Assembly (NCBI GenBank): GCA_009392915.1
Contig: CP045477.1
Coordinates: 704,001 to 768,000 of the forward strand
DNA length: 64,000 bases
Direction of reading: 5' to 3'
DNA from: Candidatus Forterrea multitransposorum CG_2015-17_Forterrea_25_41
GTDB taxonomy: Archaea > Iainarchaeota > Iainarchaeia > Iainarchaeales > CSSED10-239
Shown here: positions 5,052 through 48,856 of the stretch, piece after piece
Position numbering within the stretch: the stretch's first letter is position 1
Layout: each line of letters starts with the position of its first letter
Program-made: the position numbers and the translations under genes
Notes under the pieces: model-generated
The model's database searches: none
Seen by the model: only the letters and a program-made list of their open reading frames with translations
What the model was told of the DNA's origin: nothing

Positions 5052-5063
5052 AAAATGTACGTA

Positions 5064-5322: not shown

Positions 5323-5437
5323 AACAATTAACCTCTATTTAAAATATAAAAAATAATAACATTTAAATAAACTATTAACCTACTATAATAATATATTTTA
5401 CACATTATATAAATTTAAAACAAAAACTTGAAAACAT

Positions 5438-7750: not shown

Positions 7751-7770
7751 TTTTTTCCTCTTCACTTTAA

Positions 7771-8091: not shown

Positions 8092-8109
8092 AAAGAAAAA
8101 AATTATTTT

Positions 8110-9456: not shown

Positions 9457-9590
9457 ATATGCTAACTAGTATATAAACTTTTCTAAAAGTTACAGGGCTA
9501 ACCCTTGAGAAACACCCTTTTCTTACAGGATACACCCATGAGAAAAGCAAAAGTATATATATAAGCAACTTATTAATACTAAATAGTTTC

Positions 9591-9649
9591 TAACCGGCTA
9601 GTCTATTGACCGGTTTATATTGTTAACCGGCTAGTCTATTGACCGGTTT
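9591..9649. repeat. Two direct copies of a 26-bp GC-rich element, each an inverted repeat AACCGG-N12-CCGGTT; candidate operator
   Basis: TAACCGGCTAGTCTATTGACCGGTTT at 9591-9616 and 9624-9649. They sit in a locally GC-rich intergenic patch upstream of the AAA ATPase gene on the minus strand. Confidence 0.5.
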
Positions 9650-9687
9650 TTAAAATAAAACTTAAAATAAAATTATATTTAAATATA

Positions 9688-10197: not shown

Positions 10198-10208
10198 GTT
10201 TATTTCTT

Positions 10209-11144
10209 TTAAAATTTATATTTTTCTCTTAATTTACCTATAAATAATTCAGCAACACTACTATTTACATGATTTTCATTATACCTAGAATTATTAAAAA
10301 AATTCTTATAAAAAGAATTTAATTCACTAGGATCAATTTTAGATAACTCTCTTTTATAGTGGACTCTATAAGATCTAGGATGATTTAATAAGTTTATTAA
10401 AGAATTTACTTTTCTTAAAGTTGTTTTATTTAATTGAGCCCTAACTTTAATTAAACTTCTTTCTCCTCTTTTATTAATATTAGAGATATTTTTAGAATAA
10501 TCAATTTCTTTTAAAGGAGCATTTGGTTTTTGAACAGTTATCATAAAAGATAAAATATCATGAATATTATGTTCTTTTAAATTTGTAAATTTTAAGTTAT
10601 TTATGTAAAGATATCTATTTAAGCTTTCTCTTAAAACATTTGGATCATTAACTTTTAAGTTTTGTTTAAAAGCTTTTATTTCTTGTCTTGTTGGTTCTAA
10701 TTCTAGAAATAAAGAAAAATATTTTTTTTTAATAATTTCGTCTTGTCTTTTTTCTCTATCTATAGCTCTTGTTTTTAAATATTGTTCTTGTTTTTTTTTA
10801 AAATTTTCTAAATCTTGTTTTTTATTAATTTCATGCTTAAAAGAAGCATCTTCTTTTGCATCTTGAAAAGCTTTAAGTAAATTTTTTTTTTCTGAATTTA
10901 ATTTTTCAATAGAAATAGCAATTTTTCTTTTTTCAATAGAGCCATTTGGTTTTAATTTATTTAATTTTTCTAAAGAAGATTCAATTTTATCTAATTTAGA
11001 TTTATAATTAGAGACAACAGCATCTTTTTTTAAATCAGGTCTAGAATTTATTTTAGCTTCTTTTTGTTTAATAGCTTCTTGTCTTGAAGTTACTTTTTTT
11101 CTTAATTGAGAAAAGCTTTTTTTAAATGGATTTTTTATTAACAT
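10209..11144 (-). CDS. Lysine-rich coiled-coil hypothetical protein
   Basis: 311 aa, K/E-rich. No recognisable motif. Confidence 0.35.
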   Translation of the reverse strand: MLIKNPFKKSFSQLRKKVTSRQEAIKQKEAKINSRPDLKKDAVVSNYKSKLDKIESSLEKLNKLKPNGSIEKRKIAISIEKLNSEKKNLLKAFQDAKEDASFKHEINKKQDLENFKKKQEQYLKTRAIDREKRQDEIIKKKYFSLFLELEPTRQEIKAFKQNLKVNDPNVLRESLNRYLYINNLKFTNLKEHNIHDILSFMITVQKPNAPLKEIDYSKNISNINKRGERSLIKVRAQLNKTTLRKVNSLINLLNHPRSYRVHYKRELSKIDPSELNSFYKNFFNNSRYNENHVNSSVAELFIGKLREKYKF

Positions 11145-11346
11145 AAAATATCAAAACTCCTTTTAAATTTATAAAGTGATAATTATAAAGTATATAAAAA
11201 GTATTAAAAAGCTATATTATTTAAAAAAATAATAAAAGATTTAGAAGAAAAAGTAAAAATTAATAAAAACTTAATTTTAAAAAAAATAAAAAGAAAAGAA
11301 AAAAGAAAGAAATAAATTCCTTCCTTTAATCTTTATGTTTTAGAAT

Positions 11347-13860
11347 CTAGTCTAACATTTCGATAGCGTTGATTAATTCTTTTGCAGCGTCAGCTGTGTC
11401 TGCAGCAGAGAATCCAGCAACAACGATGTTACCGTTTTCAACAGAACCAACAACAAATTGACCAGCTTCTGTTAAGAATTCATCAGTAATTCCACTAGCT
11501 AAAGAATTAACTAAGTGTCCACCAACGATTATCTTAGCACCAGCACTTGTCATTGTTTCGTTGTCAAGGTATACAATTCTTTGTGTACTTGCATTCCAGT
11601 TAGCAGGTGTCATAGCTGTCATTTCTTCTCCACCAGTTACTGTTGAAGTGATTAATTTAGCTGAGATCATACCGTCTTCTGTTTCAACAACTGTACCAGG
11701 AGTAGTTAAAACAAGTTCTCCACCGTTAAGTGTAGTTTCTGAAGAAACTCCTCCACCTATGAAGATTTGTCCTTTTAATTGTTTCTCAGGAAGAGTAAAC
11801 ATTGGATACCCGTCTTCTATTGTTGCGTAAGCACCGTATGTTGTATAACCGAAAACTAAATCTGAATCGTTACCTTTATCTGATAAATCAAATGTGTCTG
11901 ACCCATTAGCACCGTATACTTGCTTATAAGTACCTAAAAAGTCATTATCATTTAAGTTAACCATATCTCCTGTGTATGCATCCATATACATTGTAATAGA
12001 ATCTGATCCATTAGTTACAGTTATTGCAGCAATAGATTCAAAATCATCATTTGCATAATTATCTGTAAATGTTGCACTATCTACTCTATCACCAATAAAT
12101 GAAGCATCAGATATAAATCCAGCAGCAGTATTAGTTGAATCTATTCCAGAAACATCCCATGTATAACCTGTGTCTCCAATTCCTAAATCAACTGTTTGAT
12201 TATTTTTCAAACCCATTGCAACTGTTTTAATTGTATTATAAACTGCATCTGCAGAAGCTGTTTTTGCAACACCAGGAGCTACCATCACAGTATACTCTAC
12301 ATCTCTAGCATCGTTGTTATATAAAGGAATTCTTAAATTTGTATATAATCCTGTATTAACATCTTGAACACTACCAGATTTAGAATAATAATCAGGAGTA
12401 GTTGAAACCCATGTTGGAGTTGATCCATCTGCACCAGTTAAATACTTACCATCTGAATCTTCTAATTGAACTGTGAAATTAACATCATTAGCAGCAGCAG
12501 TATAGAACTTGAAATACAATTCTTTACCATCTAATAATAATGAAGTGTATGAATCTCTAGCAGTTGTTGCTTCGTCGTAATCATACATGAAAACTTCGTG
12601 ATCTTTTCTATCAGCATCTGTAAAGTAGATGTAATTATCTTGAGCATAGAATTCTGCTGATTTTTCTTCAGTTAAACCTAAGAAATCAATTGAACCAAAT
12701 CCTAAAGGAAGCTCTACTGAATCTCCAACTCTTAATGAGTCATCATTAGTAAATCTTAATGATGTATCATCTGTAGATAAAGTGATTTTTGTTAAATAAC
12801 CAGAAGCACCAGGTGCTGAAGGAGTAAAATCAACTTTCCATAATTTATCATCTTTATTAGGGAAATCAGTTATTTTTGACCCATTCTTTAACTCTAATTT
12901 TCCTGAAGATCCAGTTATTACTTTAACAGTAGTTGCGTAAACAGTATCAACATCGATATTAGATTCTAAGTAGCTATCAAATATCTTTGTATCACCAGTT
13001 CTGAATACATCAGTTGCAACAACACTACCTGTTGAATCTTTTAAGTTCATTTCAGCTTGGTATCTGTTTGTTGTGTCACCAGTATCTAAAATATTTACAA
13101 CTTCAATTGTGTAATCGTCAGCAGTAAATGATGCACCAGGAGCATATGTTTGAGTAGCTAAGTTTTGAACTAATTTTAATGTTGTACCATCGAATGAATC
13201 AACAGTGTAGTTCTTACCCATTAAATTAAATTTAAGTCTTGGGCTTGCACCAGCATCTGTGTAATCTCCTTTAATACCTTCATCAAAATCAACAGAGTAT
13301 GATATAGCACCTTTGTCGATTGAAGCAACTAAATCTTTGACATCTTTATCTTTATTAAAGTAAACATTTGCTGTTACTGACAACTCATCAGAAATTGTTA
13401 AAGTACTTGCACCAGCGTGATCTGAATCAGCAGATGTATCTGTCTTATATAACATAGAATAATCTGTTTCATCAATTACTTTTGCAGTATTAGTCATATC
13501 ATTTAATGTGTAATTATCTGATAAGTAACCGTCACCTGATATTGTTGATGTACTTGAAGAACCTACTTCGATAGTTACGTCTTGTAAAGAAGCTCCGCCA
13601 ACTGTACCTGTAGTTGTGTATGCTTTCTTTCCGATAGCAGCAGCTATGTTACCAGCCCATACTACATCAACTGGTTGTGCCATAGAACCAACTACAACAC
13701 TAACACTTGGAACACCATTATTATACATTGTATCTTTAGTGATGTTCATAGAAAAGTTATCTGCACCAACGTTAGCAGCAACAACTGATCCAGCTAAAAG
13801 AGCTGAAACACCTAAAGCAGCTACACCAGCAACAACTTTTTTCATGTTTATATTTTTCAT
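11347..13860 (-). CDS. Large secreted Thr/Ser/Gly/Asp-rich surface protein (candidate S-layer or major cell-surface protein)
   Basis: Signal peptide MKNINMKKVVAGVAALGVSALLAGSVVAANVGA. 837 aa. Locally elevated GC and biased codon use (ACT/GGT/GCT) suggest high expression. A 690-bp non-coding leader lies upstream. Confidence 0.4.
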   Translation of the reverse strand: MKNINMKKVVAGVAALGVSALLAGSVVAANVGADNFSMNITKDTMYNNGVPSVSVVVGSMAQPVDVVWAGNIAAAIGKKAYTTTGTVGGASLQDVTIEVGSSSTSTISGDGYLSDNYTLNDMTNTAKVIDETDYSMLYKTDTSADSDHAGASTLTISDELSVTANVYFNKDKDVKDLVASIDKGAISYSVDFDEGIKGDYTDAGASPRLKFNLMGKNYTVDSFDGTTLKLVQNLATQTYAPGASFTADDYTIEVVNILDTGDTTNRYQAEMNLKDSTGSVVATDVFRTGDTKIFDSYLESNIDVDTVYATTVKVITGSSGKLELKNGSKITDFPNKDDKLWKVDFTPSAPGASGYLTKITLSTDDTSLRFTNDDSLRVGDSVELPLGFGSIDFLGLTEEKSAEFYAQDNYIYFTDADRKDHEVFMYDYDEATTARDSYTSLLLDGKELYFKFYTAAANDVNFTVQLEDSDGKYLTGADGSTPTWVSTTPDYYSKSGSVQDVNTGLYTNLRIPLYNNDARDVEYTVMVAPGVAKTASADAVYNTIKTVAMGLKNNQTVDLGIGDTGYTWDVSGIDSTNTAAGFISDASFIGDRVDSATFTDNYANDDFESIAAITVTNGSDSITMYMDAYTGDMVNLNDNDFLGTYKQVYGANGSDTFDLSDKGNDSDLVFGYTTYGAYATIEDGYPMFTLPEKQLKGQIFIGGGVSSETTLNGGELVLTTPGTVVETEDGMISAKLITSTVTGGEEMTAMTPANWNASTQRIVYLDNETMTSAGAKIIVGGHLVNSLASGITDEFLTEAGQFVVGSVENGNIVVAGFSAADTADAAKELINAIEMLD

Positions 13861-14546: not shown

Positions 14547-14756
14547 TTAAGCAGGAATCTCTATTGAATATAACTTTGCAGGAAATATGTTTTTAATAAC
14601 CTCTTTAACATCTTCATCTTCTAGAAATAAAGAAACTGCTTCTTTAAGATTTTCAAGAGCATTATTTTCATCATCTCCTTGACTAACTACATTTAATTCT
14701 GGACAAAGTGCTACAAATATTTTATCTTCTTTTGTAATTATTGCTGAAAATTTCAT
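14547..14756 (-). CDS. hicB: HicB-like antitoxin (UPF0150/RNase-H-like fold), orphan copy. The start is revised from the track's 14765 to the ATG at 14754-14756.
   Basis: MKFSAIITKEDKIFVALCPELNVVSQGDDENNALENLKEAVSLFLED has the HicB/UPF0150 pattern. The track start at 14765 is GTG and lies inside the conserved RBS block. The ATG sits 7 nt downstream of GGTGA. Confidence 0.55.
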   Translation of the reverse strand: MKFSAIITKEDKIFVALCPELNVVSQGDDENNALENLKEAVSLFLEDEDVKEVIKNIFPAKLYSIEIPA

Positions 14757-14761
14757 AAATA

Positions 14762-14797
14762 TCACCTAATATATTATAGTTATAAACAAAATTTAAA
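14762..14797 (-). promoter_or_regulatory. Promoter/RBS block, copy 1 (36 bp identical to 15495-15530)
   Basis: Minus-strand reading: TTTAAATTTTGTTTATAACTATAATATATTAGGTGA. It has a TATA-like TTTATAA/TATAATATA and a GGTGA Shine-Dalgarno 7-8 nt before the ATG. Confidence 0.5.
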
Positions 14798-15046: not shown

Positions 15047-15277
15047 TTATACCAATTTTAAAAATTCATCTCTTGTAAGACCTAAATCTTTTTTAATAAT
15101 TTTATTAAGTAAACCTGGTCTTAATTTTTCAGAACCATGATTAGGGATTGTAATTTTATGATTATCTTCTTTGTTTATAAAAGTCATATGACTTCCAGAA
15201 CTATGACTATACTCATAGCCAATTTTTGAAATAATTTCACCTAATTCTTTTCCAGTTATCAAAGGTAGCTCAGACAA
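15047..15277 (-). CDS. hicA: HicA-family mRNA-interferase toxin (YcfA-like)
   Basis: GKELGEIISKIGYEYSHSSGSHMTFINKEDNHKITIPNHGSEKLRPGLLNKIIKKDLGL matches the HicA pattern (GSH..., PxH, K.G.L..IlkqaGl). It is 2 nt downstream of hicB. Confidence 0.7.
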   Translation of the reverse strand: MSELPLITGKELGEIISKIGYEYSHSSGSHMTFINKEDNHKITIPNHGSEKLRPGLLNKIIKKDLGLTRDEFLKLV

Positions 15278-15279: not shown

Positions 15280-15486
15280 CTACACCTCTAATTGTTGTAA
15301 GCCTATAAATTTAGAAACAGGAACTTCAATTTTAGTTTCAGAAGTATGACACTTGATAGCTTCTTTTGTTCTTTCTATTAATTCATCCATAGTTTTTGCT
15401 TGAGAATAGCAACCAGGTAATTCTAAGACTTCTGAAATGTACCAACCATCAGAATCTTTTTCAATAATTATATTATATTTATCCAT
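15280..15486 (-). CDS. hicB: HicB antitoxin (UPF0150)
   Basis: MDKYNIIIEKDSDGWYISEVLELPGCYSQAKTMDELIERTKEAIKCH is the canonical HicB N-terminal fold. It lies in an operon with hicA. Confidence 0.7.
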   Translation of the reverse strand: MDKYNIIIEKDSDGWYISEVLELPGCYSQAKTMDELIERTKEAIKCHTSETKIEVPVSKFIGLQQLEV

Positions 15487-15539: not shown

Positions 15540-17927
15540 TTAGTAAGGCAAAGCAGCATTGTTATTTGCAAGAAGACATAAACAAACTTTTAAATCTACT
15601 TGAGAAGTAAACTGAGTAACTCCATCGTTTGTAGTTAAAGTTAAAGTTCTTGTAAAACCTGCAGGGAAATTACCTAAATAAGTTAAACTTCTATTTGGTT
15701 CTATTAAAGAAGGTTGTGAAACTTTAAATAATTTAGAAGAAATATTTGTTTTAGGTAAAGGTTTAGTTGTTATTGATAAATTATTACTCTTTACAGAAGT
15801 GTAAGGAGGAGACGCTAAACCTAAGTCATATGGACTTGCAGAAAAATTACAATCGTTTGAAATTATTTGAGAACCATACTTCCAAACACAACTTACATTA
15901 TTATAATTATTATAAACAGCAACAGTAAAATCTAAATCTTCTTTGTAAGGATAACTTCTGTTTTCTTCAGGACTTAAAACTTCATGATAATGTGCTTCTG
16001 GCATTGTAACATTAATTGTTACAATATCTGTGTCTTGTCTTGAAAAATCATCTGTTACTATTAATTTAATTTCATATTCTGAAGTTTCTAAATTTAATTG
16101 ACCAGGAGTTTTATTTAAGTTACATTGGTTTGAAAAATTAGTATAAGAACTATTACCTTGTTTTTTGTGTTGCCATTGACAACTAGAATCGCCAATTTCA
16201 TTTTCTATAGAAGAAGAAAATGAAATAACATCATCAATCTCATAAGAAGAATTGTTTTCTGGAGAAGTGATTTCTGCTTCAAGGTCTAAAGGTTCTGTAA
16301 CTGTTAAATAAACATCAACAGTTGTTCCACTTTCTGATAAACCTTCAAGACGGATACCACTATCAACTAAACCATTGTAGGTTGTTGAAGTGGTGTCTCT
16401 TATTACTTGACAATTTGGATCGATTCTTGAAACATCATCAAATTTACCTTCTACAATTTCTGGGTTACAACCACCAAAATCATCCGGAAGTTCGGTTGTA
16501 TATAGATCACTATGAGTTCTAGAAGGGCTAGTATAAGCATCTAATATATTTTGTTCGAAAATAATACCAGGATGACTTATTGTATCATCATAATAATCAT
16601 CATCTTCATCGTACATGATACTGTTAAAAGCTATATCCCCAGCATAACGATCATCAATATAAGCTTCATCAACATGTAAAACATCTATTCCACCATTTGC
16701 ATTAAAAACTGGTGTAGTTACACCAAATAAATATCTATCTAAAGAAGTATCAGAAATATATCTATTAGTGATTAAAAAATATTCTCGATCACCCATGGTA
16801 TCAGGGTTGTTTAAAAGATAAGCATCATTACTAGTATCATAAGGACCTAAACTATAAATGTCTGCTTGAGAAGCAGAATTTATAACAACAGGATTAAGCC
16901 AGCCAAAAAAGAATTTTGACCAAGAATCAAAATTAACTGGTTTTTTATGATCTTGACCAACATCAATATCAAAAACCATTACAGTGTGACCTCCAAGACC
17001 AGAGCCTAACTGAATACCAGTATAACTAAGTTCATAAAGATCTGGAAGACCTAAAACATGAGCAAACTCATGAACAGCAGAATCAATACTTAATCTACAG
17101 TCTGTTGGATAATTAAAATAATTTATCCAGTTTTGACAAATAGATTGAAGATGACGAGAAGGAACTACAGCAACATTACCATAAAGCATACCTTGTATTT
17201 CTAAAGTTGTTTCTTTATAAATTCTTGCTTGAGAAATAATATTATTACCCATCTCTTGAGCAGGAAGACCAGCATGAACTAAAACAACACCATCAAGTCT
17301 ACCATCACCATCAGAATCATATTGTGTGAAATCAATTGAATTACTTCCAGTTCCAAAAAGATTTAATGTTTCAACAATAAGTTCATGAACATTATTGTTG
17401 TTATAATAATAACTATAATTGTGAGAAACAGTTCTCCAATCATAAACATCATATGAAATATCTAAAGAATCATAAGAATTGTGTTTATAAAATTCACTTA
17501 CACTTATACCTTCACCAGATAAATAATTATTTGAATTATAAACATCATCATAAACTGATGCTGTTAAACCTGCATCAGGAGAAAGATCAGGAAATTTAAC
17601 TAATAAAACAGGAATACTATAATTACCGGTTGTTGGAGAAGTTCCTATTTTATTATCTAAGGTTGTTGTTTCAAAATCTCTTGTAGAAACATTAGAAGAA
17701 TAATTTAAACCTAAACTTGCAGGAGTTTCTCCTGGAGGAAGACAAATACTTCCTGAACAATAACTTGAAAGAATTGGTGGAATTTCAAAGACAGGAGGTT
17801 TAGATTTTGTAATTGGTTTTATAACTGCAATATTTTCTGCACTTGAAGAAGCTTCTTTAGAATAAACTAAAGGAAGAAGTAAAAGTGAGAAAATTATTAT
17901 AACTACTAAAAATATTCTTTTATCCAT
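15540..17927 (-). CDS. Secreted M6 (immune inhibitor A-like) zinc metalloprotease with C-terminal beta-sandwich domains
   Basis: Signal peptide. HEFAHVLGLPDLYE matches the M6 HExxHxxGxxD motif. 795 aa. The C-terminal region is Ig/PKD-like. Confidence 0.55.
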   Translation of the reverse strand: MDKRIFLVVIIIFSLLLLPLVYSKEASSSAENIAVIKPITKSKPPVFEIPPILSSYCSGSICLPPGETPASLGLNYSSNVSTRDFETTTLDNKIGTSPTTGNYSIPVLLVKFPDLSPDAGLTASVYDDVYNSNNYLSGEGISVSEFYKHNSYDSLDISYDVYDWRTVSHNYSYYYNNNNVHELIVETLNLFGTGSNSIDFTQYDSDGDGRLDGVVLVHAGLPAQEMGNNIISQARIYKETTLEIQGMLYGNVAVVPSRHLQSICQNWINYFNYPTDCRLSIDSAVHEFAHVLGLPDLYELSYTGIQLGSGLGGHTVMVFDIDVGQDHKKPVNFDSWSKFFFGWLNPVVINSASQADIYSLGPYDTSNDAYLLNNPDTMGDREYFLITNRYISDTSLDRYLFGVTTPVFNANGGIDVLHVDEAYIDDRYAGDIAFNSIMYDEDDDYYDDTISHPGIIFEQNILDAYTSPSRTHSDLYTTELPDDFGGCNPEIVEGKFDDVSRIDPNCQVIRDTTSTTYNGLVDSGIRLEGLSESGTTVDVYLTVTEPLDLEAEITSPENNSSYEIDDVISFSSSIENEIGDSSCQWQHKKQGNSSYTNFSNQCNLNKTPGQLNLETSEYEIKLIVTDDFSRQDTDIVTINVTMPEAHYHEVLSPEENRSYPYKEDLDFTVAVYNNYNNVSCVWKYGSQIISNDCNFSASPYDLGLASPPYTSVKSNNLSITTKPLPKTNISSKLFKVSQPSLIEPNRSLTYLGNFPAGFTRTLTLTTNDGVTQFTSQVDLKVCLCLLANNNAALPY

Positions 17928-17985
17928 ATATATTTATTGATTTAACTTATATAAAAAGTTAACTTATTAACTTTTTAAAATAACT

Positions 17986-19023
17986 TTAATTTAAACCAAG
18001 AGAAAAACACACTTCTCCATTTGAGTTTGTAACACAAACTGGTTCTAAATCATAGTATTCAGATAAATCTGGATGACTTACATAAAATGTAGCATCTCCT
18101 TCTGAAGAACTATCTGATGCTGAAAATCTATTAAGACAAAGGTTTACAGAACCATTAGAATTTGTTTGTGCACTACAAAGTGCATATTCTGGAGCATCTT
18201 GAACAGGAAGTGTAAACTCTAACATCTTTTCATCAGAATTACCATTTTGATCTATTCCTGTAAAATAAAAATTAAAAACTCCTTCTTGATTACAAGAAAT
18301 ATTACTTGCAAGTTCTTCTTCTGGATTAAGACTTGAGAAAGTATGTATGAATAATCCTTCTGCTGTTGCAGGAACTTGAGTTCCATCGTAACTACATGCA
18401 TTACTTAAAACAATTTCATTAATTGCAGAGTTATATGTTTTTACAACTAAACTAACATCAACTAATTGTTCTTCAGTTGAATTAAAATCTATACTTAAAG
18501 TTGTAGGATAAGGTTGATTTACATTTGCACTTGCTGTTGGATGTGGACTTAAATTTAAAATAAATGTATTAGGAAGAGAATTTCCATATTCACAAGAAGA
18601 ATAATCTATTTCACAAGAAACACAATTATAAACATCATTAATTAAAAAATAACCAAATGGAAGATTATCTATACAACCTTCAGAATCTGGACCTAAAACA
18701 ATAGAACCATTCACCCATTCACATTCCTCGCCAGTATTTAAAACATTATCTCCACAAACACCACCTGGAATTGGGTCAGGATCATCATTACCTACTCCTC
18801 CAGAACCACCAGCATTACCATCCCCACCGCCTACAGAACCTAAGCCATCACCATCTCCTGATGGAATATAGTTAGATAGATCTACTTCTGGTATATCTTG
18901 AGTATTATCTATTTTTTTATTAATGTTAGATAAATAAAATGTTGCAAAAACAACACTACCTAAAACTATAACACCTATAATAATTATTGCTTCTAAAGAA
19001 ACCTGTCCTTTATCTCTAATCAT
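17986..19023 (-). CDS. Class III (prepilin) signal protein with Gly/Asp linker and a Cys-rich extracellular domain
   Basis: MIRDKGQVSLEAIIIIGVIV carries the G|Q-x3-E pilin processing motif. Then GDGDGLGSVGGGDGNAGGSGGVGNDDPDP. More than 20 Cys follow. Confidence 0.5.
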   Translation of the reverse strand: MIRDKGQVSLEAIIIIGVIVLGSVVFATFYLSNINKKIDNTQDIPEVDLSNYIPSGDGDGLGSVGGGDGNAGGSGGVGNDDPDPIPGGVCGDNVLNTGEECEWVNGSIVLGPDSEGCIDNLPFGYFLINDVYNCVSCEIDYSSCEYGNSLPNTFILNLSPHPTASANVNQPYPTTLSIDFNSTEEQLVDVSLVVKTYNSAINEIVLSNACSYDGTQVPATAEGLFIHTFSSLNPEEELASNISCNQEGVFNFYFTGIDQNGNSDEKMLEFTLPVQDAPEYALCSAQTNSNGSVNLCLNRFSASDSSSEGDATFYVSHPDLSEYYDLEPVCVTNSNGEVCFSLGLN

Positions 19024-19228: not shown

Positions 19229-19879
19229 ATGACAAAAAAAGAAAACAATTTAATGTATATTAAAATTCTTTTAGGTGCAATCTTAGCAGTTTTAGTTTTA
19301 TTATTAGTATTGAATCTATCAAACAATAATAAAACAGCAGATGCTTTTTTAAAAGAAACAACAAGTAAAACAGATAACCAAGCAAATCATTTTTTAGGAA
19401 ATGAAGATGCACCTTTAGTAATGTATGAATATTCTTCTTTTACATGTCCTTTTTGTAAAAGATATCAAATAGATGATCAAACTTTTGAAACTATTAAAAA
19501 AGAATATATAGATACAGGAAAAATTAAATATGTTTATCAACACTTTGTAAGAAACGAAATAGATATTAAAGCTGCAAATGCTGCTGAATGTGCAGGAGAA
19601 CAAGATATGTTCTTTGAATATAAAAAGAAACTTTATGAAAATCAAACAGATTTACCAAAAGAAGAATTTTCAAAGTATGCACAAGAACTTGATTTAGATG
19701 TTACAGCTTTTGAAAGTTGTCTTGCAGAAAACAAATATGTAAACAAAATAACACAAGATAAACAAGATGGTGTTAATAAAGGAATTAGTGGAACACCAGG
19801 ATTTATTGTTGGTAACCAAAGAATATCTGGTGCTCAAGACTATCAAGTCTTTAAAGCAGCAATAGATGAACAACTATGA
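19229..19879 (+). CDS. DsbA-like thioredoxin-fold thiol:disulfide oxidoreductase (membrane-anchored)
   Basis: N-terminal TM segment. CPFC active site in YSSFTCPFCKRYQ. Confidence 0.65.
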   Translation: MTKKENNLMYIKILLGAILAVLVLLLVLNLSNNNKTADAFLKETTSKTDNQANHFLGNEDAPLVMYEYSSFTCPFCKRYQIDDQTFETIKKEYIDTGKIKYVYQHFVRNEIDIKAANAAECAGEQDMFFEYKKKLYENQTDLPKEEFSKYAQELDLDVTAFESCLAENKYVNKITQDKQDGVNKGISGTPGFIVGNQRISGAQDYQVFKAAIDEQL

Positions 19880-19987
19880 ATCTAAATTTACATCTATTAA
19901 AAATAATAGATGCTAATAAAACAAAGAAAGATAAATTAATTTTTATTCTTTCTTCTTTTTTTTATTTAACATCAATAATAATAGTAA

Positions 19988-20371
19988 ATAAAGTATACAT
20001 CACTTATAAAAACATTATTTTTATTTGAAAAAACTTTTTTTATAACATTTATTTTTATAAATATAATAATTGCAATTCTATTTGGAATAATTATTAATTT
20101 ACTTAGAAAAAGAATAAAAGATTCAAAAGAGATAAGACAAAAAATAGGTCTTGCACCAGTTGGTGTTTTTTTAGGAATCTTAGGTGGTGCATGTCCAGGA
20201 TGTGTAACTGGCTTATTACCTTTAATACTTAGTTTATTTGGAATAAGTTTTTCATTATTATCATTACCATTTAATGGTTTAGAATTATTATTGCTTTCAA
20301 TAATATTAATGATGGTTTCTATTTATTATTTAACAAAAGAACAAAGAGTTTGTAAAATAAATTATTTATAA
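19988..20371 (+). CDS. Three-TM membrane protein with intramembrane CPGC motif (no in-frame ATG/GTG/TTG start; possibly frameshifted with the 19876..20028 ORF, or a pseudogene)
   Basis: Open frame ...FFITFIFINIIIAILFGIIINLLRKRIKDSKEIRQKIGLAPVGVFLGILGGACPGCVTGLLPLILSLFGISFSLLSLPFNGLELLLLSIILMMVSIYYLTKEQRVCKINYL. It is absent from the ORF track. Confidence 0.35.
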   Translation: MKYTSLIKTLFLFEKTFFITFIFINIIIAILFGIIINLLRKRIKDSKEIRQKIGLAPVGVFLGILGGACPGCVTGLLPLILSLFGISFSLLSLPFNGLELLLLSIILMMVSIYYLTKEQRVCKINYL

Positions 20372-22615: not shown

Positions 22616-23113
22616 TTATTCATTCCAACCAAACTTATAACCTTGTGAAGTTACAATTTGGTTGTTTTTAATAGAATCAATATACAAGTAATATGTATCA
22701 CTACATTTATTATCATATCCTTCTAAAATAACATATCCTCTTACATCTTTATTCATTTTTGGATCAAGATATGCACCAGGAAAACCTACATTATCACTAG
22801 AAGTTACTTTTAATTCCATTAGGTTTGCAGAAGCATCTTTTAAATATACTTTATATCTTTGATCTTCTCCTTTAGGAACCCAATCAAAAGTAAAATATGC
22901 TTTATCACCTGCAACACAATCTTGATATTGCGCATTTACATTTATAATATAAGCAGGAAGAGGAGCATTATTACCTTGAGCAGTAATTTTAATTGCATCT
23001 CCTGTAGTAGTTAATGTAGTGGTTACAATTATTCCTAAGATTAATCCTAAGATTAAACCAAATAAACCATACACCATTATTTGTTTTTTATTTTTCATTT
23101 TTAAAAACCTCAT
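22616..23113 (-). CDS. Pilin-domain paralogue (secreted/anchored), homologous to 43929..44447 and to the N-terminus of 25654..30858
   Basis: C-terminal CSDTYYLYIDSIKNNQIVTSQGYKFGWNE versus CGDSYYLYIKTTKNNQTVTSQGYRFSWVD. The N-terminus is a hydrophobic anchor, not a clean G|Q-x3-E signal. Confidence 0.5.
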   Translation of the reverse strand: MRFLKMKNKKQIMVYGLFGLILGLILGIIVTTTLTTTGDAIKITAQGNNAPLPAYIINVNAQYQDCVAGDKAYFTFDWVPKGEDQRYKVYLKDASANLMELKVTSSDNVGFPGAYLDPKMNKDVRGYVILEGYDNKCSDTYYLYIDSIKNNQIVTSQGYKFGWNE

Positions 23114-23176: not shown

Positions 23177-24337
23177 TTTTAAAAAAAAAGAAAGAAAACA
23201 AAATTGTGTTGCATAACTCTTTTTAAAAGTATTGTCTAACCTATTTTATTACTAGATAAAGGAGGTTAGACAATATGAATATTAAGAACGAAAAGATTAA
23301 TAAAAGGAACTGGTCAAAGATAAATTATGGAAAAACAAGACAAATCTTGTTTTTACTAGATAAAAACATTATTTTTAGTGAAAATGAAAGACTAGTTTCC
23401 CAAAATAAAAACAAACCAGGAAGACAATTTATATATAGTGATAGAATAATAGAACTATTAATTGATCTTAAAAATTATTTTAAATTTGATTATCGTAAAC
23501 TACAGGCATTCTGCCTGTTGTTTAATAATGTTATAAAAATAAAAACACCTGACTTTACAACTATTTGTAGAAGAATGCACAAATTAGAATTATTTCTAAA
23601 AAATATAAAAACAAAAAAAGAACCAACCTTTATAGCTATAGATGGTTCTGGACTTCAAACTACTAATCGAGGAGAATGGCTTAGATTAATACACAAAAAA
23701 GGAAAAATAAACTTAAGAAATGGATTTGTAAAATTAGTGATTGCAACAGATGTTGCATCTGGAGAAATAACTGGAGTGTATATTTCAGATGATTCTGATT
23801 TTGAAAATAAAAGCTTATCAGATTTATTATACCAAACAATAAATAATCAAAACCAAGAAGTCAAAGGACTTCTTGGAGATGGGGCATACGATTCTTATGA
23901 TAACTTTGATATGCTTGATGATATGGGAATAAAACCAATTATCAAAATCAGAAAGAATGCAATTACAACAGAACCTAATGACGATTATTTAAAAAGAAGA
24001 AGAAAACTTGGAAAAAAGAAAAAAATAAAAAGAATTGAAGTTGCAAAAAAGCAACTTAAAAATGTAGATGACTGGAAACAAAAAAATGAGTATAATAAAA
24101 GGTGGGTTGTTGAATACACGTTTAGTGTATTCAAAAGACTATTCGGACATAGTGTGTACTCTAAAAGAAAGAAATATGTCAAAAATGAAGTAATTTCTAA
24201 AGTAAATTTGTATAATAAATTATTAAATATCAATTAAGAAAAAAATAAAATGAATTAAAAAAAGAAATAAGCTAAAAATATTGTGTAAAACACAATATTT
24301 GTGCAACACAATTTTAAAAAAAAAGAAAGAAAACAAA
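23177..24337. mobile_element. IS-type insertion element with inverted termini (~TTGTGTTGCA, about 23204-23214 / 24301-24311), flanked by identical 26-bp direct repeats
   Basis: The direct repeat TTTTAAAAAAAAAGAAAGAAAACAAA lies at 23177-23202 and 24312-24337, immediately outside the inverted ends. Confidence 0.55.
23275..24237 (+). CDS. DDE transposase (IS4/IS5-like)
   Basis: Blocks IAIDGSGL, LLGDGAYDS and VVEYTFSVFKRLFG give the D, D, E/K pattern of IS4/IS5 transposases. The RBS AAAGGAGG is embedded in a 10-bp-stem hairpin TTGTCTAACC(23233-23242)/GGTTAGACAA(23264-23273). Confidence 0.6.
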   Translation: MNIKNEKINKRNWSKINYGKTRQILFLLDKNIIFSENERLVSQNKNKPGRQFIYSDRIIELLIDLKNYFKFDYRKLQAFCLLFNNVIKIKTPDFTTICRRMHKLELFLKNIKTKKEPTFIAIDGSGLQTTNRGEWLRLIHKKGKINLRNGFVKLVIATDVASGEITGVYISDDSDFENKSLSDLLYQTINNQNQEVKGLLGDGAYDSYDNFDMLDDMGIKPIIKIRKNAITTEPNDDYLKRRRKLGKKKKIKRIEVAKKQLKNVDDWKQKNEYNKRWVVEYTFSVFKRLFGHSVYSKRKKYVKNEVISKVNLYNKLLNIN

Positions 24338-42013: not shown

Positions 42014-43135
42014 TTAAAAAATAAACCAAATAAAATCTCCAAAAATATTTAATAAAATATACGCTATTAACACAGAAGGGGTAAATGGAATTGTTTTTTT
42101 TAAAACTATCTCCTTCTCTAAATTATGTTTATATGAACTCTTTAAAAAGGTTATGTCTTCAGGTAAAAGACCCCCTATTTTCCTAGAATCTATGATTAGT
42201 TTATTTGATTTTTGTTTAGAGGTATATTCTTTTAAATAATCAATAAAGGATATTTTTTTTTCAATAACTTTTTTATTTGATAAATAATAATTATTTAAAA
42301 CAACATCTCCTTCTTTTAAATCATTTATTTTTTTACTAAAAGTTAATATCTTTGAAGAAATTATTTTATAAAAAGTTATACTTAAGAAAATAATAATAAT
42401 AGTTATAGTAATTATTAATAAATCATAGAAAACAAATATTCTTTTTGAATAAAACAAAGAATATCCAATTAATAATAAATAAAGCCCTAAAACTAAATAA
42501 TTATAGTGAAGAATATTTTGTTTTTCAATTTTTCTAAAAAACAAGATAAACATTATAGATAATAAAAAATAAATTAAAAAAGGGATATACATTTCAAAAA
42601 TATTAAAAAAAGAAGAAATTAAGAAAAGTATTAAAATAGAACTTACTAAAGAAAATAATGTGTTTTTTGTTTTTAATAAATTTATAAGTATTCTATAGTG
42701 TCTTTTAAATATAAATAAATAAATAGAACTAATTAAGAGAATAGGTGCTGTAGAAAGAATAGCAGTTAGTATTAAAGTCAAAGAAAATACAGGGATTGTT
42801 ATTATTTTAAAAGAAAATAAAAAGCCTAAAAAATTAATATTAAAAGGATTTAAGAAAGAAATTGCAGAAAACAACTTTAAATCACCACCTGCAAAGAAAC
42901 CAAACTCCCAAAGAACATACCCTACAATAAAGGTTATACCAAAAGATAAAAAAGCATTAAGAAGAATAGATATTTTTGAGAAATAAATTGTTTCTATTAT
43001 TTTAAAAATAACTCCAATAATTAATAAATATAATACTAAAAAATTTGGAACAATTCTTTTTTTAATATCATAATAACTTGCAAATAATAAAAATATCAAA
43101 GTTATTGAAAATGCAAAAAAAGGAAAGTTAAACAT
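42014..43135 (-). CDS. Prepilin peptidase (A24 family, PibD/FlaK/TadV-like) with an about 130-aa C-terminal extension
   Basis: Asp23 in SYYDIKKRIVPN. Second Asp in FFAGGDLKLF (GxGD-type). Multi-TM. 373 aa versus the typical ~250. Confidence 0.6.
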   Translation of the reverse strand: MFNFPFFAFSITLIFLLFASYYDIKKRIVPNFLVLYLLIIGVIFKIIETIYFSKISILLNAFLSFGITFIVGYVLWEFGFFAGGDLKLFSAISFLNPFNINFLGFLFSFKIITIPVFSLTLILTAILSTAPILLISSIYLFIFKRHYRILINLLKTKNTLFSLVSSILILFLISSFFNIFEMYIPFLIYFLLSIMFILFFRKIEKQNILHYNYLVLGLYLLLIGYSLFYSKRIFVFYDLLIITITIIIIFLSITFYKIISSKILTFSKKINDLKEGDVVLNNYYLSNKKVIEKKISFIDYLKEYTSKQKSNKLIIDSRKIGGLLPEDITFLKSSYKHNLEKEIVLKKTIPFTPSVLIAYILLNIFGDFIWFIF

Positions 43136-44579: not shown

Positions 44580-44753
44580 TTAACTATTATTAACTATTGA
44601 TTGATAGTCAGTTGCAGTCTTAACATTCTTTGCAGAAGTTTGTTTTACAAAAATTCCAACAGTTAATGCAACTAATATAACAACTCCAGTAATAATTATA
44701 AACTCTAAAGAAACCTGTCCTTTATTATCTTTTATTAATCTTCTTAATTTCAT
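44580..44753 (-). CDS. Short Flp-type pilin, 57 aa (not in ORF track; candidate major pilin)
   Basis: Reverse-strand ORF: ATG at 44751-44753, stop at 44580-44582. MKLRRLIKDNKGQVSLEFIIITGVVILVALTVGIFVKQTSAKNVKTATDYQSIVNNS. G|QVSLEF motif. Confidence 0.55.
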   Translation of the reverse strand: MKLRRLIKDNKGQVSLEFIIITGVVILVALTVGIFVKQTSAKNVKTATDYQSIVNNS

Positions 44754-44755: not shown

Positions 44756-45652
44756 CTAAACCATTCCTGAAAGCATTAAATTAAGTATTACTTGAGAAAT
44801 AAAATATACTATATATCCAATAGTAATTAATACAGGGAAAAATAAAACTACAAAGCTTAAATCTCCTTCTCTCATAACACTTATCATTGATGCAGCAGCA
44901 AATATTTCAATAACAATATAAATATCTAAAAGTAAAAAGATTGTTTTTTGAGCATCTAAAGAAACTTGTAAAGCCTCTGCTGCTGCAATTCCTGAATTTA
45001 CAGCTATATCTGTTAAAAAACCAGTAATTACTCTTGTCATTCCAAAAATAAATGGAGCCACAATTGCAGAAGCAGCAACAATAAAAATTGTTTGAAGCAT
45101 TGTTTTTGTTTGTCTTTCCTTTTTAACCCTGAACAATTGTTTAGTGTCATTTGCAATTTCTTCTAAAACATCAGCTAATTGTGCACCTGTTCTTAAAGAT
45201 TCTTGAATTAAAGTAATAGTTCTTCTTACAATTTTAGATTCAATTCTTAAAGCTAAATAACTTAAAGCAACATACATTGAATCTCCCATTTCAAGTCTTC
45301 TAATAGCTTCATTAATTTCAAAAGAAAGGGGTCCGAAATCAGCAGTGGATACTTCTCTTAAAGCAAAATCAAATGAAGAACCAGCCTTCATTGTGTCTGC
45401 AATTAACTTTAAAGAATCTGGCCAATATCTTTCAATTTCTCTTATTTTTTTAAAATAAAGATACATTGGAAGACCTAAACCTAAAACTAAAGCATTTACA
45501 AATAATAAAAGTCCGATCTTTATATCTAAGAAATAACCGATTATCCCTAAGAATATACTTGCAAAAAATATTAAAACAATCCATATTTTTGCAGGAATCT
45601 TTATTTTTAAAGCATATAAAAATACTTGATATCTGTCTAATCCTTTACTCAA
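44756..45652 (-). CDS. TadC/FlaJ-like platform protein (single T2SS-F domain)
   Basis: About 6 TM with a cytoplasmic helical domain. It pairs with 45659..46804. Confidence 0.55.
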   Translation of the reverse strand: MSKGLDRYQVFLYALKIKIPAKIWIVLIFFASIFLGIIGYFLDIKIGLLLFVNALVLGLGLPMYLYFKKIREIERYWPDSLKLIADTMKAGSSFDFALREVSTADFGPLSFEINEAIRRLEMGDSMYVALSYLALRIESKIVRRTITLIQESLRTGAQLADVLEEIANDTKQLFRVKKERQTKTMLQTIFIVAASAIVAPFIFGMTRVITGFLTDIAVNSGIAAAEALQVSLDAQKTIFLLLDIYIVIEIFAAASMISVMREGDLSFVVLFFPVLITIGYIVYFISQVILNLMLSGMV

Positions 45653-45658
45653 ATTAAA

Positions 45659-46804
45659 TCACATTTTTGGTTCAATCATTTTAATATAATATACTAAAAA
45701 GATGAATATTATTGGTAGTGCTACTGCAAAAATTAAAGTTAATGTTGTTGGTGTCATAACTCCTGGTAAAAACAAAGATCCATCTTGTCCTAGAGGAGCA
45801 TTTGCAATTGCACCTAAAATTGCAGCAAATACAGGCATAACAATAGCCATGAAAATAAAAATAATTCCAAAGAAATTCATTTTTTCTCCGAATGTTTTAG
45901 TAGATTCTAAAAGATCAAAAGATACTGTGTCTGCAACACTATTAATTGTGCTTGCCAAATTACCACCTGTATTTAATGTTCTAACAATGTGGAAAAGTGC
46001 AATGTTATAATTTTTAGATTGACTTCTTAATGCAGAATGTCTTAAAGCTGTTTTTGTATCAGTACCATTTTCAATTTCTAAGATGGTTCTATTCATTTCT
46101 TCTGATAATACACCATAATCATTTGCAGCAACAGATTGTAATACTTTATAAAGACCAATACCTGCTTGAAGTTCTGTTGCAATATGTCTTAAAGCAAATG
46201 GAAGTTCAATATCAATATAGACTCCTCTGGATTTTGCTTTTTGCATTGGAATAACATATGAAAGAATAAAAACAAATACTAAAAATAAAATTGGCCAAAT
46301 AAAAAGGATACTAACTGTCCATAAAGGCATAGTTGCAACAAAAATAATTAATAATAAAAAAGATAAAAAACTTGCAATCAATAAAGAAAATATAGTTGAA
46401 AGAACTAAATGTTGTACTAATGTTCTTTTATAGTTTGCAGAGGTTAAATAATAAGATATTTTTTTACCTAAAGAATTCTTTAAAATATATAAAACCACAG
46501 AATCAACTAATTTTTTAAAAGGTTTATAATATTTAGCAGCACTTTTTTCAAGAGTACCTTCTGTATTTGCAGCTAATTTATTTTCAGCATCAACATCAAA
46601 CTGAGAAAGTCTACCTTGAGAAATTACTTCTCTTAGTTCTTTTAAATGACCTTCAGATAAAGATTCAGATGTAATATTTTTGTCCTTTTCTTTCATTTTT
46701 TTAACAATATTTTGAACAGCATCTAAATCTACATCTAAGTCGTCTTTCTTGGATTTATTTTTTTCTAAATCACTTTTTAAAAGTTCTAATTTTTTTGAAT
46801 CCAT
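45659..46804 (-). CDS. TadB/FlaJ-like platform protein (single T2SS-F domain)
   Basis: ELPFALRHIATELQAGIGLYKVLQSVAANDYGVLSEEMNRTILEIENGTDTKTAL is T2SS-F-like. Confidence 0.6.
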   Translation of the reverse strand: MDSKKLELLKSDLEKNKSKKDDLDVDLDAVQNIVKKMKEKDKNITSESLSEGHLKELREVISQGRLSQFDVDAENKLAANTEGTLEKSAAKYYKPFKKLVDSVVLYILKNSLGKKISYYLTSANYKRTLVQHLVLSTIFSLLIASFLSFLLLIIFVATMPLWTVSILFIWPILFLVFVFILSYVIPMQKAKSRGVYIDIELPFALRHIATELQAGIGLYKVLQSVAANDYGVLSEEMNRTILEIENGTDTKTALRHSALRSQSKNYNIALFHIVRTLNTGGNLASTINSVADTVSFDLLESTKTFGEKMNFFGIIFIFMAIVMPVFAAILGAIANAPLGQDGSLFLPGVMTPTTLTLIFAVALPIIFIFLVYYIKMIEPKM

Positions 46805-46840
46805 TAAAATCTTTTTTTTAATTTATTTTAAATATATATA

Positions 46841-48856
46841 CTATCTTTTTAGTATATATTCTTTTTGGACTTCATGTGCAACATCATTAATAGCCCTAAT
46901 TTTCTTAGAACGTAAATCTTCAAGGATTTTTGCTCTATCACTAATTTTATTTAAAATATCTTGATCATTTAAGTTTGTGTATGTTTTAATTAAATCAAAG
47001 TAAAGAATAGGTTCTTTAGTTCTTTCAAGAGAATCTGTTTCAGGATTCCAAACAAAGACCATATTTATCTTTGGATCTCCATCTAACACACCCATAATCT
47101 CTGCAATTGCAGTAATTCTTCTAACTTGTCCTTTTGAAGTTCTTAATCTTTTTTGAATAATTATAAAATCAATTCCTGCAAGCATTAATGGAGGAACATC
47201 CATTGGTGGTGAAGTTAATCTTACAATTGTTTCTTTTGCAGAATTTGCGTGCACTGTACCCATACAACCATCGTGACCAGTGTTCATGGCAGTGAAAAGA
47301 GTAGTTGCTTCTTTGTGTCTAATTTCACCTACAACTATTCTATCAGGTCTCATTCTTAAAGTGTTTTTAGTTAAGATTTCTAAACTTAATTCACCTTTTC
47401 CTTCTAGGCCTGGTGGTTTTCCTTCAAATCTAATTACATGCTTTATAGGAAGTCTTAATTCCGCAGTGTCTTCAATTGTTAATATTCTGTCTGCTTCTGG
47501 AATAAAGTTTGCAAGAACATTTAATGTAGTTGTTTTTCCAGAACCAGTACCACCTGAAATTAAAATATTTGCAGGTTTTGCACCAAATCCTTCAACAACA
47601 CACCACAAAAATGCAGCTACTTCTAAATTAAGTGTTTTAAAGTTTATTAAATCAACTATAGTGTAAGGATCATCTCTGAACTTTCTAATAGTAACTGTAG
47701 AACCATCAATTGATGCTGGAGGCACAGTAGCATTTACACGAGAACCATCTGGAAGTCTTGCATCTAAAAGAGGATTTGAAATATCTACACTTCTTCCTAA
47801 AGATCTTGCAATTTTATCAATAATATCATTAATTCCATCATCTGAAAAGAAAATAATATTTGTTGTCATCATTCCATAATCTACATGGTAAACATATACT
47901 GGTTTTTTAGGACCAACAATCATAATTTCTTCTAATTTGTCATCTTCAAGTAATGGTTCAATCACACCATAACCAGTCATTTCTTTAACAACTGCATCTG
48001 CATAAAAAGGATAAAGATGTTTTGGGATATTTATTTCTTGTGCAGTTTCTAAAATATCAATTACTTTTTGATAATATATGTTTTTTCTTTGAAGAGGATC
48101 TCTTATTTTATAAGGATCAGAAGCAACAAGTCTTGTGGTTGCTTCTTTTAAAGTATTAATTATAATTTTTTGACTAGGATTTGGTTTTGGAACAGGAACA
48201 GAATAGTGTAATATAGATTGAGTGTCAAGTCTATAAATTTTAACTTCACCATATTTTGTAACTAATGTAGCCCCATCAATTTTTTCTTCTTGTTTTTCAA
48301 AAGCAGAATCTCCTTTTGTTTCAGAAAGTTCTGAAGATTTTATTTCTGAATTAGTATTAAGTGCTTTTAATTTTGAAAGGGCATCAAGTTTATTTTGTTT
48401 TTGTGTATCTGTATCAAAAACAGAATCTTTATCATCTTCAATTAATTTTTTTTCTTTTTCAGATAAATCACCAATATCTAATGTTTTTGATTTTTCTTGA
48501 GAGTCTTGTTTTTCAGCATTTTTTGCTTTTAATCTTTCAAATAAAGAATCTTGTGATTCTGTTGAATTTACTTTTTCTTGTTTTTTAGAAGAATCAAATT
48601 CAGATAAATCCATTATTTTTTTGTTTTGTGTAAAAGAAGATGGCTCTTGTGATTTATTGTGAGAATCAACATCAACAGATTTTTTTTCAAAAAAGTTATC
48701 TTGCTTTAAAGTTTCTTTTTTAGAATCTAGAGAAATTTCTTCTTTCTTTTCAGGTGCATTTTCAGCAGCTTTTCTAGCTTCTTCTTTTTGTTTATCTTTT
48801 TCTAAACTATATTTTCCAACTAAATCATCAATATATGAGGGCATAAAATTATTCAC
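46841..48856 (-). CDS. Pilus assembly ATPase (FlaI/TadA/GspE family) with a disordered K/E/S-rich N-terminal region of about 230 aa
   Basis: ILISGGTGSGKTTTLNVLANFI (Walker A), ILTIEDTAELRL (Asp box) and a His box region. Confidence 0.8.
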   Translation of the reverse strand: MNNFMPSYIDDLVGKYSLEKDKQKEEARKAAENAPEKKEEISLDSKKETLKQDNFFEKKSVDVDSHNKSQEPSSFTQNKKIMDLSEFDSSKKQEKVNSTESQDSLFERLKAKNAEKQDSQEKSKTLDIGDLSEKEKKLIEDDKDSVFDTDTQKQNKLDALSKLKALNTNSEIKSSELSETKGDSAFEKQEEKIDGATLVTKYGEVKIYRLDTQSILHYSVPVPKPNPSQKIIINTLKEATTRLVASDPYKIRDPLQRKNIYYQKVIDILETAQEINIPKHLYPFYADAVVKEMTGYGVIEPLLEDDKLEEIMIVGPKKPVYVYHVDYGMMTTNIIFFSDDGINDIIDKIARSLGRSVDISNPLLDARLPDGSRVNATVPPASIDGSTVTIRKFRDDPYTIVDLINFKTLNLEVAAFLWCVVEGFGAKPANILISGGTGSGKTTTLNVLANFIPEADRILTIEDTAELRLPIKHVIRFEGKPPGLEGKGELSLEILTKNTLRMRPDRIVVGEIRHKEATTLFTAMNTGHDGCMGTVHANSAKETIVRLTSPPMDVPPLMLAGIDFIIIQKRLRTSKGQVRRITAIAEIMGVLDGDPKINMVFVWNPETDSLERTKEPILYFDLIKTYTNLNDQDILNKISDRAKILEDLRSKKIRAINDVAHEVQKEYILKR

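Follow-up and report, generated by a model that had tools for sequence, protein, structure and literature searches.

Do two large genes that lie next to each other in the genome of a DPANN archaeon, one for an exported metalloprotease and the other for a cysteine-rich surface protein, form a functional unit, or are they merely neighbours? The question is raised by a stretch of 64,000 nucleotides from Candidatus Forterrea multitransposorum CG_2015-17_Forterrea_25_41 (contig CP045477.1, positions 704,001 to 768,000), the whole of which was analyzed and is called the window below. A first-pass annotation had described here, on the minus strand, an InhA-like metalloprotease and a protein of 345 amino acids (aa) with a class III (pilin-type) signal, and had seen in them, together with a DsbA-like gene beside them, an extracellular toolkit that depends on oxidative folding. 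Both genes were found as described (795 and 345 aa, Table 1), and they are not chance open reading frames (ORFs), because they are long at a guanine-plus-cytosine content of ~25% across the whole window and have homologues. In our reading, to which we give a probability of roughly 55%, the 345-aa protein is a pilin-like stalked adhesin or anchor that acts with the Sec-secreted M6 protease as a conserved two-gene surface module.

The linkage of the two genes carries this reading. A word-indexed homology search, run with the single protein and then with a family profile, returned only four to six matches to the 345-aa protein, while an exhaustive phmmer search over 1.84 billion representatives revealed its family (37 matches: about 12 full-length relatives of 300–411 aa, proteins that match only in the N-terminal helix, and repeat adhesins that match the central domain weakly). 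Judged by these sequences, the protein falls into a small family without annotation, whose members come from metagenome-assembled genomes (MAGs) of Iainarchaeota/Diapherotrites; a Pfam/NCBIfam scan gave no family above the cut-off for it, a search of PDB sequences with the family profile found nothing, and no description of the family or of its pairing with M6 in DPANN was found in the literature. The individual parts (M6 peptidase, class III surface protein, DsbA-like oxidase) belong to known kinds. Related loci were found with a 7-member family alignment, and labels such as L001 denote the relatives' contigs. In all 10 family protein clusters with readable downstream DNA, the next same-strand gene encodes an M6 protease (the window; L001–L004; L005/L006/L015; L007/L014; L008/L016; L009; L010; L013; L030; L031); L012 and L029 were left out of the count, as their contigs end too early. 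Among the linked pairs, identity falls to 27–30% for the cysteine-rich protein and to 36% for M6, and the pair is kept in changed surroundings, with MCM, signal-peptide peptidase and translation-factor genes as neighbours in L007/L014 and giant surface proteins in L010. The 345-aa family and M6 are an evolutionarily conserved unit, and since the pair is kept across such wide divergence, the two proteins most likely act together.

Pairs in the reverse order were also present in L011, L017, L018 and L020, where a shorter M6 paralogue stands immediately upstream of a large class III cysteine-rich protein. They lie at 5001-12029, 2-3746, 4966-7156 and 41-3314 of these contigs, respectively; where complete, the proteases have ~700–730 aa and the class III partners 983–1578 aa, and some of the latter contain CHB_HEX_C_1 repeats and CGNG..EECD modules.

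The two genes could nevertheless be co-located surface genes only, with regulation or neighbourhood in common at most and no physical coupling. The 345-aa protein would then work on its own as a minor pilin or stalked adhesin, and the M6 protease would be released freely as an exoprotease for nutrition or defence. Adjacency in all 10 informative cases, at identities as low as ~30% and in rearranged contexts, is unusual among functionally unrelated genes, and M6 paralogues repeatedly adjoin other class III cysteine-rich proteins; on these grounds we consider mere co-location doubtful, even though some M6 paralogues have no 345-family neighbour (e.g., a methyltransferase gene is upstream in L011), the stoichiometry is not fixed (three tandem M6 copies for a single 345-aa gene in L001), and each gene seems to have a TATA element of its own, that of the M6 gene following T-runs and that of the 345-aa gene accompanied by a Shine-Dalgarno sequence. 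If the proteins were merely neighbours, the locus would be an ordinary set of secreted-protein genes, and its value would lie in the annotation of a new small family.

The spacer between the genes, which measures 54–80 bp in most loci, was compared across loci for such elements. The sequence AGTTAACTTTTTA[T/A]ATAAG sits ~25 nt before the ATG of the M6 gene and recurs in L001, L004, L005 and L007, diverged but recognisable also in L008, at a protein divergence of 30–60%, and an ATATATG-like start-codon sequence was seen at the M6 gene in all loci compared. The element looks like a promoter consisting of a B recognition element (BRE) and a TATA box, which would serve a leaderless M6 mRNA. For the 345-aa gene, a separate TTTATAAAT element was seen, together with a Shine-Dalgarno sequence of the GGTG type. 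The 321-bp gap that L007 seems to have is inflated by a stretch of N (~7760-7860) bordered by a duplicate of the spacer sequence, probably an artefact of assembly or masking.

How would the 345-aa protein reach the cell surface? It begins MIRDKGQVSLEA, and its N-terminus, MIRDKG/QVSLEAIIIIGVIVLGSVVFATFYL (the slash marks the predicted cut), comprises a short basic leader, glycine at −1, glutamine at +1, serine at +3 and glutamate at +5, with a hydrophobic helix behind them (hydropathy > 1.6 in windows starting at residues 5–16), in agreement with the class III signal of the first-pass annotation. Q7, S9 and E11 are invariant in 16/16 members of the family alignment (A2), and the top N-terminal matches across the family, in register but weak, are PF04021 and TIGR04205, which match 10 and 11 of these members, respectively. 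An N-terminus of this type is also present in seven further ORFs of the window, namely six pilins (41.1–44.8 kb) and a 1734-aa repeat protein; in the alignment with the 57-aa pilin, 18 of 48 positions are identical, concentrated in KGQVSLE-IIIxGV. A Sec signal or a plain transmembrane anchor was considered for the 345-aa protein and rejected, as G/QxSxE stands before the hydrophobic stretch, not behind it, and agrees with the pilins of the window; on sequence grounds the signal is therefore neither of these, and cleavage after G6 is predicted. The view that the protein is displayed on a pilus or processed by a peptidase was strengthened by other contents of the window, which include an A24 prepilin peptidase, the pilin with the KGQVSLE-IIIxGV stretch and a complete type IV pilus locus of the archaeal Epd-like ('system 1') kind (41160-48856, minus strand). 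The layout of this locus is that of the archaeal type IV filament 'system 1' described in methanogens and DPANN (bioRxiv 10.64898/2026.04.22.720090). Cleavage of the 345-aa protein by the A24 peptidase and its incorporation into the filament would be expected from these parts.

Behind the signal, the 345-aa protein contains exactly 12 cysteines and not the more than 20 first reported, which at 3.5% is still the top density in the window (average 0.9%). All 12 are invariant in four close homologues (alignment A1), and ten of them in the 16 members of A2 (C90 nearly so), including the C-terminal four; G17, G22 and Y30 are likewise invariant there. They probably pair in disulfide bonds. The AlphaFold2 (AF2) model (mean predicted local distance difference test score, pLDDT, 64) has a helix at residues 10–37, and the Gly/Asp linker seen in the first pass was located at about residues 55–88; its length and sequence differ among the family members of A2. 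The cysteine-rich knot behind it (residues 89–147; pLDDT 60–82) resembles DUF4215/TIGR02232, the 'Myxococcus cysteine-rich repeat', in the CG(D/N)G...E.CD-type spacing of its cysteines and in weak HMM (hidden Markov model) matches of one or two family members: PF13948 (DUF4215) matches one (E 2.4e-4) and TIGR02232 two (best E 8.2e-4). It differs from them in that these matches are below trusted levels, the window protein itself has none, and family members differ in how many such modules they have and of what kind (P0096, P0097 and P0101 have two copies).

The fold of the middle domain bears on another explanation, that the 345-aa protein regulates the M6 protease, be it as inhibitor, chaperone or latency factor tethered to the membrane, or that it is a preferred substrate or decoy which shields the surface of the producer. 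Such a role would suit the strict one-to-one neighbourhood, which resembles that of protease-inhibitor pairs, and InhA2, to which the protease is compared below, is made as a zymogen (title of 4yu5/4yu6); a class III signal and a long stalk, however, fit display better than inhibition, one partner would have to serve three M6 copies in L001, neither a bait region nor a thioester motif could be seen in the 345-aa sequence, and the macroglobulin (MG)-like matches are generic Ig-like sandwiches with scores like those of pilus chaperones, p53 and S-layer domains. A regulatory role is therefore very unlikely in our estimate. A macroglobulin-like inhibitor, which the MG domains among the top fold matches had brought up, was not accepted, these matches being generically Ig-like.

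The partner gene encodes the protease that had been claimed. The expected HExxHxxGxxD motif is present at residues 286–296, and the HMM check gave 44.5 bits for PF05547 (cut-off 22) and 115.6 for TIGR03296 (cut-off 110.8). The motif region aligns with 29 M6 homologues, in all of which H286, E287, H290, G293, D296 and M317 are unchanged. The AF2 model (mean pLDDT 81, predicted template modelling score 0.70) comprises an N-terminal signal helix, a low-confidence stretch at residues 22–51, a catalytic domain that extends to about residue 520 and, in the tail, two beta-sandwiches at 550–641 and 647–782, the second of which holds a disordered insert (708–755). When compared with the PDB by sequence, the protein gave only a marginal InhA match (E 0.07), and the fold search was decisive: its best match was InhA2 of B. 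anthracis (4yu5/4yu6, E ~8e-13, 729–738 columns). Since motif, HMM and fold all agree, the protein was assigned to M6, and by its sequence and modelled fold it is a predicted zinc endopeptidase of the M6/InhA-like family. Of the 'Ig/PKD-like' tails, the Ig-like part was borne out by AF2 and Foldseek, in which the tail resembles FnIII/Ig modules, while the PKD part was not (PF22352, K319L-like, 17 bits vs. a cut-off of 27). The N-terminus, MDKRIFLVVIIIFSLLLLPLVYS/KE, is Sec-like, no C-terminal hydrophobic anchor was found by hydropathy of the sequence, and the 12 cysteines form six near-neighbour pairs.

With InhA1 and InhA2 of Bacillus and PrtV of Vibrio (MEROPS M6), the window's protein shares HExxHxxGxxD together with an invariant downstream Met, and it scores above the cut-offs of the M6 HMMs. 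InhA2 in its zymogen form, aligned over ~730 columns, further resembles the window's M6 in its Sec signal and accessory beta-sandwiches. It differs in that the window's protein is only ~12% identical to it in the structural alignment, is archaeal (DPANN), has 12 conserved cysteines and C-terminal domains that are Ig-like and not arranged as in InhA2, and in the linked loci always comes after a class III-signal gene. The window was also searched for another M6 copy or a remnant of one, and none was found. In L001 (6031-13222), from a related strain, three tandem M6 genes follow one class III gene; they are 91–96% identical to each other and ~93% to that of the window, and their substitutions concentrate at residues 241–320 and 441–520, within and just past the catalytic-site region.

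What, then, is the part of the DsbA-like gene? It does lie beside the pair on the opposite strand, in divergent orientation and 205 bp from the 345-aa gene, as the first pass had it. The protein has CPFC at residues 73–76, a GTPGF cis-Pro loop and an N-terminal hydrophobic anchor, and it resembles the thioredoxin-fold DsbA family (PF13462/PF01323) in the CPFC site, the GTP of the cis-Pro loop, the anchor and a clear Pfam match; its nearest NCBIfam model (Rcas_1661 family) scores 142.8, below the cut-off of 190. It also departs from the family in having no DsbB/VKOR reoxidant among the window ORFs scanned. The 'disulfide-forming genes' noted earlier came down to this single gene, and a VKOR or DsbB partner, sought by Pfam among the window ORFs and found in none of them, may lie elsewhere in the genome. 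A 50-aa hydrophobic ORF (19876-20028, plus strand) overlaps the DsbA stop codon (ATGA) and is far too small for DsbB/VKOR; small genes adjoin DsbA in L002/L003 too (73 aa).

A dedicated oxidative-folding module, with the adjacent DsbA-like gene tied to both cysteine-rich secreted proteins, would suit the divergent layout with a common 205-bp intergenic region and the 12 cysteines with conserved near-neighbour pairs that were observed in both proteins. DsbA adjacency is also kept in L001–L006 and L015. In this window-like clade, however, the whole neighbourhood is syntenic (including MJ0538-like, 96-aa and 424-aa genes), so that adjacency can be ascribed to shared ancestry; in L013 the DsbA gene is 6.3 kb away from the pair, although the 345-aa homologue is 84% identical, in L007/L014 and L010 the surroundings of the pair lack a DsbA gene, and no VKOR/DsbB partner is nearby in the window. 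The cysteine counts point to many clients: the extracytoplasmic count is even in 11/11 cysteine-containing exported proteins of the window (12 in M6, 12 in the 345-aa protein, 18 in the giant 1734-aa protein, 6 in a 223-aa protein, 2–4 in the pilins, 2 in a 165-aa protein, 4 in DsbA, and 2 outside the membrane plus 1 inside in a 121-aa protein), whereas the S-layer protein has no cysteine. The probability of such all-even parity by chance is ~2^-11. Even cysteine counts are reportedly a signature of general extracytoplasmic disulfide formation, and the parity can be taken as such a signature, at the level of the proteome, in this DPANN archaeon. From the 11/11 even counts it follows that the DsbA-like protein likely serves the entire exported proteome; it is most likely a general oxidase of exported proteins and not a dedicated partner of the pair, which leaves little credence for the dedicated module. 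From the proposed toolkit the cysteine-rich exported pair is thus retained, and its tie to the adjacent DsbA, which is confined to close relatives, is not.

What each component is, the family of the 345-aa protein, its linkage to M6 and the presence of machinery for processing and assembly are established; on this footing, the surface module could operate as follows. The A24 prepilin peptidase would remove the leader of the 345-aa protein, whose alpha-1 helix would then either keep it in the membrane or enter the Epd-like filament made by the 44.7–48.9 kb locus. Its flexible Gly/Asp stalk would present a disulfide-stabilised head (DUF4215-like Cys knot, Ig-like sandwich and C-terminal Cys hairpins) that may serve as an adhesin or docking module, and the anchorless, Sec-exported M6 protease would be positioned or retained by it at the surface of the cell or pilus, where it could degrade surface proteins of a host or the environment and scavenge peptides. 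The DsbA-like protein would oxidise the pair and every other exported cysteine protein.

Pairs of a type IVb minor pilin and a secreted effector exist in bacteria, e.g., CofB-CofJ in enterotoxigenic Escherichia coli and TcpB-TcpF in V. cholerae. The likeness to them is an analogy by description only: the gene of a large-headed pilin-type protein adjoins that of a soluble, Sec-exported protein with a flexible N-terminal segment, but those systems are bacterial and involve an outer membrane, and the effector here would be a protease. In archaea, functional proteins other than pilins are known to bear class III signals, as in the bindosome of Sulfolobales, and a 2026 preprint reports such signals to be widespread. 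The bindosome proteins GlcS/AraS and the DUF361/QxSxE substrates of EppA in Methanococcus share with the 345-aa protein a basic leader, G/A(−1), Q(+1), E(+5), the hydrophobic helix and an extracellular domain, and their genes, too, lie apart from the pilus machinery, with an A24 peptidase in the genome. They differ in their cargo, which is a substrate-binding protein and not a Cys-knot plus Ig-like head, and in their partner, an ABC transporter in place of a protease gene; for the 345-aa protein, moreover, PF04021 stays below the gathering score and processing is predicted. DPANN archaea are thought to be host-attached and the molecules of contact are largely unknown. This strictly conserved pair is a candidate attachment or attack module; if the pair reading is true, the idea of functionalised type IV filaments would extend beyond the sugar-binding bindosomes.

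A more specific version, which we regard as improbable, makes the 345-aa family a minor-pilin or tip adaptor that loads M6 onto the Epd-like filament, i.e., a 'proteolytic pilus' directed against the host S-layer during attachment. Were this so, an episymbiotic DPANN archaeon would use the zinc protease to breach or remodel the S-layer of its host, with host range tuned by the tandem M6 amplification in L001 and by the variability of the Cys-knot modules.

Several points weigh against the two-gene surface module itself. The sequences all come from a single DPANN lineage, and part of the synteny could reflect inheritance and not selection, although the altered gene surroundings in L007 and L010 speak against an account by inheritance alone. 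The T-runs and the TATA-like element in the spacer point to possibly separate transcripts and not an operon; given these possible separate promoters, we speak of a conserved gene pair and not of a proven operon. PF04021 (Class_IIIsignal) is the top match of the 345-aa protein and lies in register, yet at 15.4–18.3 bits it is below the cut-off of 23.7; among the pilins of the window's own pilus locus, two also score below it (22.6 and 19.7 bits) and two above (29.3 and 24.6 bits). The C-terminal third of the 345-aa AF2 model is of low confidence, and the fold searches with this model returned generic Ig-like matches only, which makes 'adhesin' a class-level guess. Finally, we infer the docking of the M6 protease on the 345-aa protein, as well as the biological target.

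Table 1. Positions of the gene pair, its domains and spacer, the DsbA-like gene and the pilus genes within the window (a slash in a motif marks the expected cut)
Feature	Position	Strand	Basis
M6 (InhA-like) zinc metalloprotease, 795 aa, Sec-type signal	15540..17927	-	HMM and fold
Zinc-binding motif HEFAHVLGLPD, residues 286-296	17040..17072	-	Sequence and homologue alignment
Two C-terminal Ig-like beta-sandwich domains of M6 protease	15582..16280	-	AF2, FnIII/Ig fold matches
58-bp intergenic spacer, T-run/hairpin then AGTTAACTTTTTA[T/A]ATAAG, putative BRE/TATA promoter	17928..17985	-	Cross-locus comparison
345-aa class III-signal disulfide-rich surface protein	17986..19023	-	ORF, homologue alignments
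Predicted class III leader MIRDKG, expected cut G6/Q7	19006..19023	-	[KR][GA]/QxSxE motif
Hydrophobic pilin-like alpha-1 helix, residues 7-37	18913..19005	-	Hydropathy, AF2
Low-complexity Gly/Asp/Pro linker, residues 38-88	18760..18912	-	AF2 pLDDT <50 for 30-88
Cys-rich knot, residues 89-147, 6 Cys, DUF4215/myxo_disulf_rpt-like	18583..18759	-	CGDNVLNTGEECE motif
Ig-like beta-sandwich, residues 154-272, C210/C244	18208..18564	-	AF2 pLDDT 81-95
C-terminal region, Cys pairs C283/C296 and C330/C339, motif FYV(N/S)(Q/H)PD...C.TN.NG..C.S.G	17989..18207	-	Alignment A2
Membrane-anchored DsbA-like thiol:disulfide oxidoreductase	19229..19879	+	PF13462 119.9 bits, PF01323 49.8 bits
Six class III pilins	41160-41522, 41506-41982, 43161-43349, 43373-43840, 43929-44447, 44580-44753	-	N-terminus type
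Archaeal A24 prepilin peptidase, expected processor of 345-aa protein	42014..43135	-	PF01478 50.3 bits, PF06819 (Arc_PepC) 26.7
Flp/Epd-like short pilin, 57 aa, N-terminus KGQVSLEFIIITGVVIL nearly matching that of 345-aa protein	44580..44753	-	
Pilus assembly core	44756..48856	-	Two T2SSF (44756-46804), T2SSE ATPase (46841-48856); Pfam

The window comes from the DPANN lineage Iainarchaeota. The nearest genome records are 'Candidatus ainarchaeum sp. STF1_257', MAGs of 'Candidatus Iainarchaeum archaeon' and one MAG of a 'Diapherotrites archaeon', and the gene content is archaeal, with a Methanococcus-type S-layer protein (11347-13860), RFC, the archaeal A24 peptidase and RtcB; tRNA genes were looked for in the window and none were found.

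Other class III and membrane-anchored proteins are encoded between the pair and the pilus locus. The giant surface protein of 1734 aa (25654-30858, minus strand) begins with a class III N-terminus that hardly differs from the one in the pilin at 43929-44447 and continues with 11 CHB_HEX_C_1/Fn3_assoc repeats, Ig_7 and a C-terminal Gly_rich_2, with 18 cysteines in total; upstream of its gene lies the 223-aa gene (30892-31563), whose product has a signal anchor, 6 cysteines and no family match. The membrane-anchored 165-aa protein (22616-23113, minus strand) ends in ...CSDTYYLYIDSIKNNQIVTSQGYKFGWNE, which closely resembles the C-terminus of the pilin at 43929-44447 (...CGDSYYLYIKTTKNNQTVTSQGYRFSWVD), so that the two have the globular domain in common and different N-termini. 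Between the 165-aa gene and a 424-aa MJ0043_C-like gene there is an insertion sequence (IS)-type transposase gene of the DDE_Tnp_1 family (23275-24237, plus strand). Its position is taken by a 299-aa gene in L002 and by nothing in L003, and the insertion is therefore strain-variable.

Directly downstream of the M6 gene, and also on the minus strand, are genes for a HicB-like antitoxin (15280-15486) and a HicA toxin (15047-15277), an arrangement kept in L005/L006, with a DUF7387-like 72-aa ORF (14547-14765) near them. A second T2SSE-like ATPase of 770 aa (5438-7750, plus strand), remote from the pilus locus, has an N-terminal Zn-ribbon match that is weak and below the cut-off, and is accompanied by an AAA_14/DUF4143 ATPase (8110-9456) and a nucleotidyltransferase (3930-5051).

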